The notes below the pieces were generated by a model, which was not told the DNA's origin, made no database searches, and saw nothing but the letters and a program-made list of their open reading frames with translations. Made by a program: the position numbers and the translations under genes. Positions 7,043-25,846 of a stretch of DNA of 32,572 nt are shown here, piece after piece. Position 1 is the first letter of the stretch. Each line of letters starts with the position of its first letter. The DNA is from a virus (taxonomy: Duplodnaviria; Heunggongvirae; Uroviricota; Caudoviricetes): IMG/VR virus record IMGVR_UViG_2802429232_000006; one strand, 5' to 3'.

Positions 7043-7082
7043 ATTAAATTCATGTAACTAGTAAATGCAAATGGAAAAAAGC

Positions 7083-8219
7083 ATGAGAATAAAATCACTG
7101 GAGACATATAACTCTCACAGTAAATTGAAAATTAATAAAATAGAATTCAAATCACTGACCTTATTGGTTGGTGCTTCAGGTGTAGGGAAAACACAAATAC
7201 TTCGTTCTATCAATAAAATAAAGTCTATCGCACATGGTGATTCCGTTAGTGGGTTTTGCTGGAACGTTGAGTTTAATGCTGAAGGTAATGATTATCAATG
7301 GTCTGGTGAGTTTGAGGCGCTGGAGGATTATGATGATTTTACTTATGGAATGTTTCATTTTGATGATGACGACAAGGTTGAACCAAAAATTATAAAAGAA
7401 GAAGTTAAAATCAATGGTTCAATTATTATCACCAGAAGTGGCGATGATATCGTTTATAATGACAGTAAAACAGTTAAGCTGGCTTCTACAGTTAGTATAG
7501 TTCATCACTTGCGTGAGGAAGATGATATTTCGGTTATACACAAGTCATTTTCACGAATTGTGCAAGTTGATGATGATGAAATGCATAAGGTGTTTCCTAG
7601 AAAAAATAAAGATGCTTCAGAGGATGAAGAGCTTAGCATCAATGATATCAGAGAGAAGTCATTCTCTTTGAGTGCTAAGTTGTATTTGTGTCAAGAAAAA
7701 CAACCAGTCTACTTTCATCAAATTAAAAATTCATTTGTGGAGATTTTTCCATATATTGAAGATATAAAGGTGGTTAAGGTTGATACAAGAGGGATTCCTT
7801 TCTTTGTTCATTCTGTATATGCACTCAAGGTTAAGGAAAGAGGGATTGATGAGTGGATTTCGCACAATTCAATGTCTACCGGGATGTTGAAAACATTTGT
7901 CCAACTGGCATATCTGCATCTTAGCCCGACGGGAACTGTGTTCTTAATTGATGAGTTCGAGAATGGCTTTGGTGTTAACTGTATTAATGATATAACAGAT
8001 GTGCTACTACATCATGGTAATGATGTTCAGTTTATTTTGACGAGTCATCATCCTTATATTATAAATAACATACCGCTTGATAACTGGAAAATTATTTCAA
8101 GGAAGGCCGGGGTTGTTGATAACTATTCTGCGGATTTTTTTAATTTAAAAGAATCCAATCATGAGGCGTTTACTAAATTAATAAATTTAAGCGTTTATTT
8201 TGATGGTGCGGATAGATGA
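7083..8219 (+). CDS. ABC-type / AAA_21-like ATPase, candidate defense-system component
   Basis: Longest ORF starts at 7065; ATG at 7083 (MRIKSLE...) fits the family N-terminus. Walker A GASGVGKTQ, Walker B VFLIDEFENG, H-loop-like LTSHHP, signature-like SMSTGM; acidic inserts; AT-rich codon usage unlike flanking phage genes. Confidence 0.8.
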   Translation: MRIKSLETYNSHSKLKINKIEFKSLTLLVGASGVGKTQILRSINKIKSIAHGDSVSGFCWNVEFNAEGNDYQWSGEFEALEDYDDFTYGMFHFDDDDKVEPKIIKEEVKINGSIIITRSGDDIVYNDSKTVKLASTVSIVHHLREEDDISVIHKSFSRIVQVDDDEMHKVFPRKNKDASEDEELSINDIREKSFSLSAKLYLCQEKQPVYFHQIKNSFVEIFPYIEDIKVVKVDTRGIPFFVHSVYALKVKERGIDEWISHNSMSTGMLKTFVQLAYLHLSPTGTVFLIDEFENGFGVNCINDITDVLLHHGNDVQFILTSHHPYIINNIPLDNWKIISRKAGVVDNYSADFFNLKESNHEAFTKLINLSVYFDGADR

Positions 8220-8926
8220 ATTTGTATATTTTGGCTGAGGGGCGACAAACAGAGCGAAGAATCTATCCGGCATGGATAGGCGTTCTATCTCCATCTTTAA
8301 AGCAAGTTGAGTGTTTGTCTGCAATAGATAAAAACAACTATTATTTTATAAGCGGCGAGGGATATCCTCGTATGATTGATGTGACGCTTATTAATGCAAT
8401 TAAAGATATACATGATAACCCTAAATTTACCGATTTTTGGGTTGTGCTAGACTCTGAAGGAGAGGATGTTGAGGCAAGGAGAGAGCTTGTTAGAAATAAG
8501 ATTGATTCTTCTGGTATAGATATATCTCATTGTGAAGTAAATATAATAGTTCAAAATCCGTGCATAGAAACGTGGGGGCTAGGGAATCGAGTCATTATTT
8601 CGCCAAATAAGTTGACTGAATCTTTTTTGGACTATTATGAGCACTATGATGTGTCATCCAATGATCCAGAGGGTATGGGAAAGCCTCTTGCCTATGACGG
8701 ATCAATTGCTAAGTATCACGAGAGTTATTTAAAAAGTATGCTTGCTTTAAGAAATGCAATGTATACGAAAAAAAATCCAGCAGCATTGATGGAGCCTTCA
8801 TATTTGCAACAGCTTATATCCAGAGCTTATGCTGAGGATGGACATATACCAAGCTTTAGGCATTTTCATACGTTGGCTACTCAGCTTGAGGCTAAAGCGA
8901 AAATGTTGGAAAGCCGTGTAGCGTAG
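8216..8926 (+). CDS. Partner protein with TOPRIM/DUF4276-like acidic motifs, candidate effector
   Basis: 236 aa; ATGA overlap with ATPase stop; N-terminal LYILAEG..E, later VVLDSEGED and NPCIETW motifs. Confidence 0.75.
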   Translation: MNLYILAEGRQTERRIYPAWIGVLSPSLKQVECLSAIDKNNYYFISGEGYPRMIDVTLINAIKDIHDNPKFTDFWVVLDSEGEDVEARRELVRNKIDSSGIDISHCEVNIIVQNPCIETWGLGNRVIISPNKLTESFLDYYEHYDVSSNDPEGMGKPLAYDGSIAKYHESYLKSMLALRNAMYTKKNPAALMEPSYLQQLISRAYAEDGHIPSFRHFHTLATQLEAKAKMLESRVA

Positions 8927-20927: not shown

Positions 20928-23549
20928 ATGAGCACGAAATTTAAAACCGTTATCACTACTGCCGGAGCCGCAAAGCTGGCTGCCGCCACTGTCCCCGGCG
21001 GGAAAAAAGTAACCCTGTCTGCAATGGCCGTGGGTGACGGAAATGGCAAATTGCCGGTGCCGGATGCCGGTCAGACGAAGCTGGTGCATGAGGTCTGGCG
21101 TCACGCTCTGAATAAAGTCAGCGTGGATAATAAGAATAAAAACTATATCGTGGCTGAACTGGTTGTACCGCCCGAAGTGGGCGGTTTCTGGATGCGTGAG
21201 CTTGGTCTGTATGACGATGTCGGAACACTGATTGCGGTCGCTAACATGGCAGAAAGCTATAAGCCTGAACTGGCTGAAGGCTCCGGACGTGCGCAGACCT
21301 GCCGCATGGTCATTATTGTCAGTAACGTGGCGTCCGTTGAGCTGAGTATTGATGCCAGCACAGTGATGGCGACACAGGATTACGTCGATGACAAAATCGC
21401 AGAGCATGAGCAGTCCCGCCGCCATCCTGACGCCACGCTGACAGAAAAAGGTTTTACCCAGTTAAGCAGTGCAACAAACAGCACCAGTGAAAAGCTGGCA
21501 GCAACGCCAAAGGCAGTAAAAGCAGCCTATGACAATGCTGAGAAACGTCTGCAGAAAGACCAGAACGGTGGTGATATTCCAGATAAGGGCGCTTTTCTGG
21601 ACAATGTTGGCGTTACCAGCCTGACGTTTATGAAACACAATGGAATGATTCCAACCACTGACAATCTTGACTCCTATGGCCCAGAAGAAAAATATCTTGG
21701 AACGTGGTCATGCCCGTCACAATCCACTGCAAAACCAGAGTCTGGTTACCCTGAAGATAAAGGCAATGGGGTTCTGGAAGTATTCAATGCTGGTCGCTTT
21801 CACTGCACACAACGCTACACTACCCGAACCGGTAATATTTACATTCGGATGCTTGATGCAGAATGGAACCCTGTCAGTCCTGTATGGAGTGCATGGAGAG
21901 TTATTACAAGCGGGACTCGCCCATTAAGCACGCCAATTGACCTGAATTCTTTAGGTGGTGCGGAACACCTGGGAATATGGCGCAATAGCAGTACATCAAT
22001 AGCCTCATTTGACCGTCATTTCCCGGAGGAAGGGAGTTTTGGGCAGGGTATTCTGGAAGTCTTTGAAGGCGGTCTGTATGGGAGGATGCAACGTTACACC
22101 ACCCGTAGTGGGACTATGTACATTCGTGGACTGACTGCCTCATGGGATGCAGAAAATCCACAATGGGAGGACTGGATTGCTGTTGGGTATCAGTCCACGG
22201 GATGGACTTATTCAGGGGATCTTGATGACCTTTTAAAGCCTGGTATTTATAGCGTTACGAAACAGGCCACAAATGCACCTGTCACCGACTCTAAAGATCT
22301 TGCTGTTGGCTCAATAGTTGAAGTGAAAAAACGTTGTGATATTGAATCGTATATCCAGACATACACGACTGTTTCAGCAACGGATGCCTATAAAAACCGG
22401 ACATTTCAGCGAACCCGCGCCAGCGGTGAAACTGACTGGGGGGAATGGGCGGAAGTATACAACTCAAAATCATTACTCACTAAATTAGGTGTCGGCGGTG
22501 TTACCGACAGGTTATCCAGTCTGGACTGGCAGACCTACGACTTTATACCGGGCAGCATGATAACTGTCAGGCTTTCAGATATGACCAATATTCCCGATGG
22601 GATGGAATGGGGCGTCATTGATACTAACCTGATAAATATCACTGTTGGCCCCAGTGAAGGCGGAGGTGTCGCCCGTTCAATGCAGGTATGGCGCAGCACT
22701 TCAAACAAAACCAACTATCGTTTTTTTACAGTCCGCTTATATGGAAATCCTGGGGAGCGTAGCTTCAATATTCGTCGGCTACCAATTATCGACGAAGCCC
22801 AGACATGGGAGGCAAAACAGACATTCAGTGCAGGCCTTTCTGGTGAACTGTCCGGCAATGCGGCTACAGCAACAAAGCTGAAAACGGCAAGGACAATTAA
22901 CGGCGTAAAATTTGACGGCTCGGCAAATATTGAAGCATTTCCGCCTGGTGTTCCGCTGCCGTGGCCATCAGATACACCACCTGCGGGCTATGCAATTATG
23001 CAGGGGCAGACGTTTGATAAGGCAGCATATCCGAAACTGGCTATAGCCTATCCTTCTGGTGTTATTCCAGATATGCGCGGCTGGACAATCAAGGGCAAAC
23101 CCGCCAGTGGGCGTGCCGTATTGTCACAGGAACAGGACGGGATTAAATCGCATACTCACAGCGCCAGTGCGTCAAATACGGACTTAGGAACGAAAACGAC
23201 CAGTTCATTTGATTACGGCACGAAGACGGTCAGTACATTTAACCACGGCACAAAATCAACGAACAGTACGGGCAATCATACGCACACTGTCGGTGGTGTT
23301 TATGGCGGCGACTCTGTCGGTGGAAAACAGCGTGTACAGGCTTCAGGAAACAATCAGGTGTCCAGCACCGCCGGAGCGCACGCCCATACGGTGGATATTG
23401 GTCAGCATAACCACACTGTAGGTATTGGTGCCCATGCACACACTGTGGCCCTGGGTGCGCACGGACACACCATCACGGTAAATGCTACGGGTAATACCGA
23501 AAACACCGTCAAAAACATCGCATTTAACTATATTGTGAGGCTTGCATAA
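20928..23549 (+). CDS. H: Tail fibre protein H (mosaic, extended C-terminal receptor-binding region)
   Basis: 873 aa versus about 669 in P2; N-terminal ~200 aa P2-H-like, then lower-GC region with tandem ~70-aa repeats and HxH-rich tip. Confidence 0.88.
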
Positions 23550-24127
23550 TGGCTTTCAGAATGAGTGCAGAAGCACAAACTATCCGCGTTTTCAATTTAC
23601 TTGATGGAACCAATGAATTTATTGGTGAAAGTGACGCATATATTCCGCCGCATACAGGTCTGCCTGCAAACAGTACAGATATTGCACCGCCTGATATTCC
23701 GGCGGGTTTTGCTGCCGTTTTCAATGCAGCTGAAATGAAATGGGAACTGATGGAAGACCATCGCGGAAAGACCGTCTACGAAACGAAAACGGGAGCAGCC
23801 ATTTATATTTCTGAACTTGGCGCATTACCTCCAGACGTGACAGCCATTTCCCCGGATGGGGATTATCAGAAATGGAACGGAAATGCGTGGGTGAATGATG
23901 AGAATGCAGAGCGTGATGCGCTTGTCAGAGCGGCTGACTCTCAGAAGAAAGAGCTGATTGCATATGCAGGTGAAATTATTGCCACGCTGCAGGATGCTGT
24001 CGATTTAGATATGGCTACCGAGGAAGAAAAGTTAAGCCTGACACACTGGAAAAAATACCGTGTGCTACTGAATCGCGTTCAGCCGGAAAATGCTCCGGAT
24101 ATAGAATGGCCAGAAATGCCGCAATAA
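23549..24127 (+). CDS. G: Tail fibre assembly chaperone G (Tfa family)
   Basis: 192 aa; 1-nt overlap with the H stop; Tfa-like sequence. Confidence 0.85.
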
Positions 24128-24455
24128 ATCGTATTAGCTCTGGTGTGAGATTACTCATCTATGGCACAGAGTAAAACCTAATCTGACTGTCCGCTCTGTG
24201 CTAGGAGCGGACGTGATGCATATCTGTCACCAAATTTAATGTGCCACTACAAACAGAGTATATAGTTGAATATTATAGTGCACCCCGGCCTCATGAATAT
24301 AACGGTGGATTACCGCCGAACGAGTCGGAAAATAGATACTGGAAAAACTCTAAAATCGAGGCCAGTTTTTGTTGTTCTCTACAATAATAATCGGATTTTC
24401 CCATGACAAGTTTAATAGTATTTAGGTGCCTGAAGTGAAGTTGAAGAAGCTATTG

Positions 24456-25535
24456 ATGAAAGTTGTGAAAGTGGTAAAGGAGCAGGTTCTAAGTACCGTT
24501 ATTTCGGGAATAATAGGCATAGCGGCTACAGTAGGGCTTTTCCATTTCACTTCACAGCCAATACGATCTGCTGATGTTCGCGAAAAATTAGTTGAAATGG
24601 CTCGGGAGTGCATCCAGCAGCAGCTTGCCACACATTTGGACTCAGTGGCGTTTGACTCAGTGGCTAGCGAGTCTCTCGATCTAAGCACCTCAAACTCCGT
24701 TGTAGTCTACGGAAGAGCTGTGAGCACAAATGGTGCCCTTAGCCGTTTCCTGATGGTCTTCGAGCCCTCTGGACAGAGTTTGATAGATAAGGTGGTTGGC
24801 AGACCTGGATTCTACGATATTGGGTATTGGGCAATCATCCCAGACGCAGGGGACGACGAGGTTGTGGCTTCTTCAGTAAACATTGAAGACCTCGACAAAG
24901 ATGGTAACAAGGACATACTAGTCCGCTTAAAGTCAACTTACGCGGATGGTGTATCCAAAGGGCTTCTTATACTTAAAAAGGATATCCATGATGTATGGCA
25001 TTTGATGGGGCTTCCATCAATGACAGAGATCATGCATTCCATTGCTGCAGGTCAGCCTCCCCAGCCGGAAGGTCTTCACCTTCCACTTCCGGCAATACAA
25101 TGGTTTAGTAATGACGAAAAACTCAAACCAAAGTCTGATATCAAACAATATCTTAATTGGGAAATTGACGAAGATAACTTGCAGGTCGCTGATTCCACTG
25201 GAAATCATTCTTTTTGGATGTTCAGAAACGGCACCAAGATAAAAATGTTCGAGAATGGACAAGCCGGCTACAAGCACTTTGGTGTACTGGTCAACATCAA
25301 TGATGAAGAGGCGATACAGGGAAGGCATCATCTCATGGTCAGCTTTTTCAAGATAGAGAATAATAGTTTGGTTCCTGATCCGAATTGGAACTGGGCCTAT
25401 CCCATGTTCTCTATCGGATTAGAGGATAGCCAAGAAGTTGAATTGAGTGACATGCAGGAAGCGGGCTTACAAGCTCATGTTTCTGGTAGCTCCGTTTTCG
25501 GCCTGACAGAGTTTGGGAAAATGGACTCAGATTAA
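24456..25535 (+). CDS. Hypothetical membrane-anchored protein, cargo at the Z/fun hotspot
   Basis: ATG at 24456 (359 aa) preferred; longest ORF starts at GTG 24426 (369 aa). Single N-terminal TM helix (VLSTVISGIIGIAATVGLFHF), then soluble domain with no recognisable catalytic motif; AT-rich relative to flanks. Confidence 0.7.
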   Translation: MKVVKVVKEQVLSTVISGIIGIAATVGLFHFTSQPIRSADVREKLVEMARECIQQQLATHLDSVAFDSVASESLDLSTSNSVVVYGRAVSTNGALSRFLMVFEPSGQSLIDKVVGRPGFYDIGYWAIIPDAGDDEVVASSVNIEDLDKDGNKDILVRLKSTYADGVSKGLLILKKDIHDVWHLMGLPSMTEIMHSIAAGQPPQPEGLHLPLPAIQWFSNDEKLKPKSDIKQYLNWEIDEDNLQVADSTGNHSFWMFRNGTKIKMFENGQAGYKHFGVLVNINDEEAIQGRHHLMVSFFKIENNSLVPDPNWNWAYPMFSIGLEDSQEVELSDMQEAGLQAHVSGSSVFGLTEFGKMDSD

Positions 25536-25846
25536 TATTCGCTAACCTTACCAACGAAGAGCAGGTCACAGGTATGGCCTAATTATGTTTTCAGAGGAGT
25601 CAGGGCTCAAGAATGCCCCCAGATAAGCCGTAAATCCTGTAGCGCAAAATCGTCTCAGATGACGCAGAGATATTAAAAACGCCTCAACCTGTTCATCAAT
25701 TAATTGATAGGTTGAACTGTTAGTTAAACTTTCACCAGCAGAAAGGTATGAACTTTTTCGACTCGCTCAAAGCTGGCTGTCAGAGCTGATAGCGTTTTGG
25801 CTACGTAAATTGTCAGTTGGAAACTGAGCGAGTACAAATCAAGACT

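Follow-up and report, generated by a model that had tools for sequence, protein, structure and literature searches.

Mosaicism of the H gene is long established in the P2 family, and experiments on P2-like coliphages place host range in hypervariable C-terminal segments of the tail fibre (PMC5285337). According to a summary of the work of Garcia et al. 2008 (PMC7460101), gpH of Yersinia phage L-413C is a four-part mosaic with a 207-aa P2-like N-terminus. For distal fibre ends a "T4- and lambda-based RBP family" has been described, comprising more than 200 members, in which homology is limited to the last ~215 aa, divergence is centred on the specificity region, and a gp38/Tfa-like gene is always adjacent; the receptors characterised for this family are LPS GlcII, OmpC, OmpF and LamB (Magaziner & Salmond 2022, PMC9659904). 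For T4 gp37, the published domain limits are residues 811-881 and 1010-1026 for the collar (D10), 882-931 and 960-1009 for the stem, which belongs to a needle holding seven irons, and 932-959 for the tip subdomain, where the receptor-contact residues lie (PMC6957217). Tfa proteins are described, in the account of PMC9608196 citing North et al. 2019, as consisting of a variable N-domain that binds the fibre and a conserved C-domain that trimerises.

The window analysed here, a stretch of 32,572 nucleotides from IMG/VR record IMGVR_UViG_2802429232_000006, is a P2-like (Peduovirus) E. coli prophage that matches P2 and P2 relatives at ~96-97% DNA identity along most of the stretch and contains the complete structural operon. 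Its gene H (20,928..23,549, + strand, as are all features below), found in the list of open reading frames, encodes an 873-aa chimeric tail fibre, 204 aa longer than the 669-aa H of P2, in agreement with the excess of about 200 aa given by an initial sequence-only reading. Homologues of the P2 baseplate genes V, W, J and I lie upstream and a 192-aa tail-fibre assembly gene follows, giving the late-operon order V-W-J-I-H-G; this synteny is shared with P2, L-413C and P24A7b, with which the flanks of H are collinear at 87-96% DNA identity. With a probability of roughly 85%, we consider H to be the receptor-binding tail fibre of this prophage, recombined from three modules. The closest relative, the P24A7b tail fibre (YP_009877362; 874 aa), has the same three-module architecture and genomic position and is 95% identical over the full length of the protein, and its assembly protein is 96% identical to that encoded here. 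The exact 873-aa protein occurs in NCBI on 20 contigs under the label "phage tail protein", and it belongs to a 90% cluster of 37 members. At least 80% of the H gene is carried by 20 of the 5,426 complete E. coli genomes, the tip-plus-chaperone cassette is found in 116 of the same set, and partial matches to the query extend to roughly 3,800 E. coli genomes.

Pfam assigns four domains to H, namely PF12571 (aa 1-151), Phage_fiber_2 (aa 170-210), Collar (aa 674-721) and a weak Phage_fiber repeat (aa 737-750). The first of these, the P2 gpH-type baseplate-attachment domain (20,928..21,380; E 3.2e-57), and the second, the PF03406 repeat at the first junction (21,435..21,557; E 2.5e-21), fall within the 207 aa that are 84% identical to P2 H in BLASTP; no BLASTP match to P2 H was returned past aa 207 (nt 21533), and in the DNA breakpoint comparison the P2-like sequence likewise stops at nt 21533, just past the PF03406 repeat. 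Because no similarity continues beyond aa 207, H is counted as a mosaic, carrying the N-terminal domain of P2 gpH, and not as a full-length P2 H orthologue, whose C-terminal part would be collinear. P2 gpH and gpG thus share with the present locus the N-terminal 207 aa and the gene order, whereas the remainder of the P2 fibre is unrelated; P2 H aa 196-383 resembles lambda Stf 248-434 (76%) instead. The PF03406 repeat of H itself matches Mu S (PDB 5YVQ/8JU3) and, at 61%, lambda Stf 263-306. Module 1 (aa 1-207) would retain compatibility with the P2 baseplate, to which three H chains are predicted, from the families of the relatives, to be fixed by their P2-type N-termini. Base composition changes along the gene: GC is 0.576 in genes V-I, 0.528 over aa 1-207 of H, 0.478 over aa 208-655 and 0.512 in the tip, bearing out the observation that the sequence becomes AT-richer after the P2-like N-terminus.

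The AT-richer segment, aa 208-655, contains a cassette of knob domains. Although BLASTP of the whole protein against itself reported the identity match alone, comparison of separate segments aligned knob 1 (aa 246-337; 21,663..21,938) with knob 2 (aa 338-429; 21,939..22,214) at 38% identity over 87-89 aa (E 1e-19 to 2e-20), and profile-profile comparison by hhalign, with columns from 16-17 homologues, gave P 7e-30; as judged from these alignments, the relatedness of the two units is far past chance. A profile built from both units detected a degenerate knob 3 in register with them (aa 430-521; 22,215..22,490; E 0.002; hhalign P 2e-4 and 7e-4), and the sequence support for a third copy is marginal. 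The two tandem related repeats proposed in the sequence-only reading accordingly stand, and the motifs quoted for them map to nt 21768-21872 (aa 281-315) and nt 22047-22160 (aa 374-411), inside the ranges that had been given, whereas the unit length is about 92 aa and not ~70 aa, and there is a third copy besides. At the DNA level age has erased the trace of the duplication, and the one unit that Tandem Repeats Finder reports is 30 nt long and lies in the stem (see below). The all-beta segment that completes the cassette (aa 522-640; 22,491..22,847) was considered as a fourth knob, for which its sequence, unrelated to knobs 1-3, gives no support (hhalign P 0.3-0.5), and is left unassigned; it was modelled with low confidence in two AF2 runs (mean pLDDT 53 in one), and all homologues keep it alongside the knobs.

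An AF2 model of aa 230-660, computed as a monomer of a natively trimeric protein (mean pLDDT 68.7, pTM 0.32; 75-89 over model residues 10-280), shows three units in succession with five beta-strands each, the pLDDT being about 80-88 in knob 1 and 81-89 in knob 3, which repeats the strand pattern of knobs 1 and 2. In Foldseek, the knob model matched 5EFV (E 8e-6) and 6CL5 (E 1.4e-4), and the matches are largely proteins assigned the R1/R2 pyocin knob fold by Buth et al. 2018 (PMC6116203). The predicted units thus have the antiparallel beta-sheet fold, with five to six strands in about 80-90 aa, and the tandem arrangement by duplication that characterise such knobs, the third unit being weak in sequence but in register. 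The R1/R2 pyocin fibres (6CL5, 6CL6, 6CU2) are likewise P2-type contractile-tail fibres with duplicated tandem knobs (~83-92 aa) and downstream HxH metal sites; they differ in having two knobs instead of three and a distal lectin-like beta-sandwich in place of a gp37-type needle. Sequence similarity between H and the pyocin fibres was undetected in a PDB sequence search, which matched the tip and the PF03406 repeat of H and missed the knobs; kinesin matches in that search (E 0.3-0.7) were discarded as noise. NCBIfam likewise left the knobs unrecognised, returning zero matches for H, for G and for the next ORF after G. Escherichia prophage fibres that vary at both termini supply numerous homologues of aa 208-655, many of them named "pyocin knob domain-containing protein", and the cassette also occurs in L-413C gpH and in a gp37 from a T-even-like phage. 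If pyocin fibres are a guide, module 2, with its three ~92-aa knobs and one beta segment, may act as a rigid spacer, forming a beaded shaft, and possibly as a secondary site for binding surface sugars.

The cassette is followed by a conserved 26-residue linker (aa 643-668; 22,854..22,931), which DNA breakpoints identify as the second junction. L-413C gpH (NP_839867) is 95% identical to H over aa 1-675, a span that takes in the P2-like N-terminus, all of the knob cassette and the linker, and then differs in having a P2 H-like tip (51% identical to P2 H 472-669) with neither HxH motifs nor a gp37-like tip. At the DNA level, similarity to L-413C stops at nt 22900 and similarity to lambda stf-tfa and T4 gene 37 starts at nt 22935-22946; lambda-like DNA extends over 22935-24111, to the end of the chaperone gene, and P2-like DNA is back from 24104. 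The breakpoint analysis, suggested as a check when the fibre was first described as mosaic, therefore resolves three modules with borders at nt 21533 and nt 22900-22946, and these borders coincide with conserved linker motifs. In T-even-like phage JK23 the linker precedes the knob cassette of the distal fibre subunit; in H it comes after the cassette, and other prophage fibres have it on both sides. A 23-residue form of it was found ahead of the cassette, behind it or at both ends in fibres P0003, P0047 and P0103. Because the same linker flanks the cassette on differing sides across fibres, aa 643-668 are a plausible site of homologous recombination, and the pattern suggests that the knob cassette has been mobilised through recombination inside the linker motif.

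The last 219 aa of H (655-873) match the crystallised T4 gp37 tip, PDB 2XGF, with E 2.3e-76, and are 59% identical to gp37 785-1026 and 60% identical to lambda Stf (E 1e-94), so that the resemblance to T-even fibre tips noted at the outset proves to be stronger than stated, a true homology. Using the published limits of gp37 (PMC6957217), the tip can be subdivided into a collar (aa 669-740, corresponding to T4 D10 residues 811-881; 22,932..23,147; PF07484 E 7e-10; 54/71 residues identical to T4), an ascending needle stem (aa 741-791; 23,148..23,300), a hypervariable tip subdomain (aa ~792-810, corresponding to T4 932-959; 23,301..23,357, limits approximate in a gapped alignment), a descending stem (aa 811-856; 23,358..23,495) and a C-terminal strand back to the collar (aa 857-873, corresponding to T4 1010-1026; 23,496..23,546; 17/17 identical). 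The stems are identical to those of T4 at 32/50 and 30/50 residues, and the tip subdomain, which is indel-rich in a five-way alignment, at 3/28. With homology over the final ~215-240 aa, a collar followed by aligned HxH motifs, and an adjacent chaperone gene, H has the features of the T4- and lambda-based family: it shares with T4 gp37 and lambda Stf the final ~220 aa, an identical C-terminal strand of 11 residues, six aligned HxH motifs, a hypervariable tip and a gp38/Tfa-like gene. Everything upstream of the linker differs from both phages, and the tip subdomain of T4 gp37 is longer and unrelated in sequence.

In the ascending stem HxH motifs begin at aa 742 and 784, and in the descending stem at aa 818, 827, 836 and 845 (together nt 23151-23468); all five HxH strings first quoted for about 23150-23470 are present, together with SHTHSA. 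Their number is six in H, compared with seven in T4, eight in lambda, and none in P2 H or L-413C H. Six of the seven T4 motifs align in H, the rung at T4 929 being missing, and these six are invariant across five family members; the four of the descending stem align with T4 iron ligands 966, 980, 989 and 998. In module 3 (aa 656-873) the collar would be followed by an up-and-down needle stapled by six His-x-His iron sites, in which each HxH triplet is predicted to hold a single iron on the needle axis, presumably in octahedral coordination by three HxH pairs of a trimer. Needle geometry may differ from that of T4, one HxH rung being absent and the tip subdomain shorter. The ascending stem also contains a 30-nt tandem repeat (23,190-23,255; 2.2 copies, 75% match), which encodes three successive 10-aa units of the type GTKxxSxF, one unit more than in T4 gp37; the shorter T4 stem indicates that stem length varies through gain or loss of this repeat.

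Gene G, whose ATG at 23,549 overlaps the end of H, encodes a 192-aa tail-fibre assembly chaperone of the lambda Tfa type (23,549..24,127; PF02413, Caudo_TAP, E 1.7e-40). Its identity is 66% with lambda Tfa along the entire protein and 28% with T4 gp38 (E 1e-19), placing it in the lambda Tfa clade and outside the T4 gp38 clade, whereas its similarity to P2 G is confined to its last 70 aa (aa 123-192; 47% identical). The L-413C chaperone, by comparison, is a 175-aa P2 G-type protein unlike G. The full-length match to lambda Tfa, combined with a likeness to P2 G that is only C-terminal, fits the published modular model of Tfa proteins, and G was evidently exchanged along with the H tip. By that model, G would nucleate trimerisation of the tip, its N-domain being expected to match the tip type and its C-domain to drive trimerisation, and folding of the H tip probably depends on this chaperone. 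An exchanged receptor-binding module, as originally suspected, is hence borne out by the end of P2 H similarity at aa 207, the gp37/Stf-type tip and the lambda Tfa-like chaperone.

As to which part of the fibre determines specificity, the comparison with P24A7b points to the tip subdomain. The H gene is ~99% identical in DNA to that of P24A7b except for a sharp divergence at nt ~23178-23530 (48-83%), covering the tip subdomain and the adjoining stem, with a minimum of 48% at 23268-23350; this implies a different receptor-contact allele in P24A7b. Because divergence is so sharply localised, it argues that the tip subdomain is the present target of diversifying exchange. The same tip allele as in the window is carried by the E. 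coli prophage in NZ_CP070026, with 93-100% identity per 90-nt window over nt 23268-23530 and 91% at 23178-23267; in the phage records searched, the 25-residue allele at aa ~788-813 had no close counterpart. It is presumed that aa ~792-810 form the receptor contact, and the hypervariable subdomain would bind LPS core sugars and/or a porin, as in characterised relatives; the host range of H is expected to differ from those of P2 and L-413C.

A different assignment of roles, which we regard as improbable, is that the tandem knobs are the chief determinant of host specificity and that the gp37-type tip serves chiefly as a nucleus for folding or trimerisation and as a generic LPS anchor. It draws on the R-type pyocins, whose diversity and killing spectrum track Knob2 over the distal domain, so that Knob2 may dominate specificity there, and on the knob-like domains of K1F endosialidase, which bind sugars (PMC6116203); L-413C, moreover, has this knob cassette yet another tip. 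The knob cassette of H, however, is 99-100% identical to that of P24A7b, and the two fibres diverge in the tip subdomain alone, which is the signature of diversifying exchange and corresponds to the region where the receptor contacts of T4 map. A further reading, rather doubtful in our estimation but less so than specificity residing chiefly in the knobs, is that the short tip allele, lacking a close counterpart in the phage records searched and set on a needle with one iron rung fewer than in T4, specifies a receptor new to the T4- and lambda-based family and that the knobs provide a second, independent glycan site; if so, a single fibre could sense a pair of surface features ~100 Å or more apart, in the way proposed for pyocin fibres.

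It is very improbable that H is a decaying remnant or a product of chimeric assembly from a defective prophage, making no functional fibre. Fragmented H genes do occur in some related prophages, as in NZ_CP032265, where H lies in three pseudogene pieces, but the 873-codon frame here is intact up to the overlapping start of G, the structural operon is complete, 20 contigs carry the exact protein, whose 90% cluster numbers 37, and a 95%-identical gene is found in P24A7b, a phage classified in Peduovirus. In the fragmented case (NZ_CP032265.1, 5035-7653), which looks like decay or mis-assembly at the locus, the Tfa-type chaperone gene is intact and 91.6% identical to G. Finally, an ordinary P2 H tip lengthened and supplied with HxH by local expansions, for which the normal position of H and its P2-like first 207 aa might speak, can be dismissed, since the alignment with P2 H, run as the means by which collinearity would have come to light, is empty past aa 207, both P2 H and L-413C H are devoid of HxH, the tip is 59-60% identical to those of T4 gp37 and lambda Stf, and the chaperone resembles lambda Tfa from end to end. 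Nor do the tandem repeats fail to align, another outcome that would have told against the initial description. The three-module reading of H as a receptor-binding fibre is thus the one retained.

Two neighbouring loci may be mentioned. The interval from G to the sheath gene FI contains an AT-rich insertion (24,213-25,760; GC 0.436) that is missing from P2, L-413C and P24A7b and occupies the P2 Z/fun cargo hotspot, where other genes are found elsewhere, for example one for a RES-family protein in NZ_CP032265. Its ORF (24,426..25,535, + strand) encodes 369 aa, for which the sole match was phrog_15038 (unknown function; E 5e-259), Pfam, NCBIfam and PADLOC all returning no match. Far upstream, the gene pair 7,065..8,219 and 8,216..8,926 (+ strand) encodes an AAA ATPase resembling AbiLi and a partner resembling AbiLii (PADLOC E 8e-19 and 8.5e-6, respectively), and is a candidate AbiL-like abortive-infection system, a prophage-encoded defence (7,065-8,926).

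With H-gene mosaicism so well documented in the P2 family, nothing in the architecture of H is new; it is a known, ordinary case of phage tail-fibre shuffling, correct but unsurprising to a specialist, and the understanding of tail-fibre biology is unchanged by it. Its value is practical only. H offers a clean natural example of the points at which a P2-type fibre can be swapped, namely the PF03406 repeat (aa ~170-210) and the linker (aa ~643-668), and also shows a tip travelling with its Tfa chaperone; both are useful for engineering the range of hosts open to P2-like phages, pyocins and phagemid particles.
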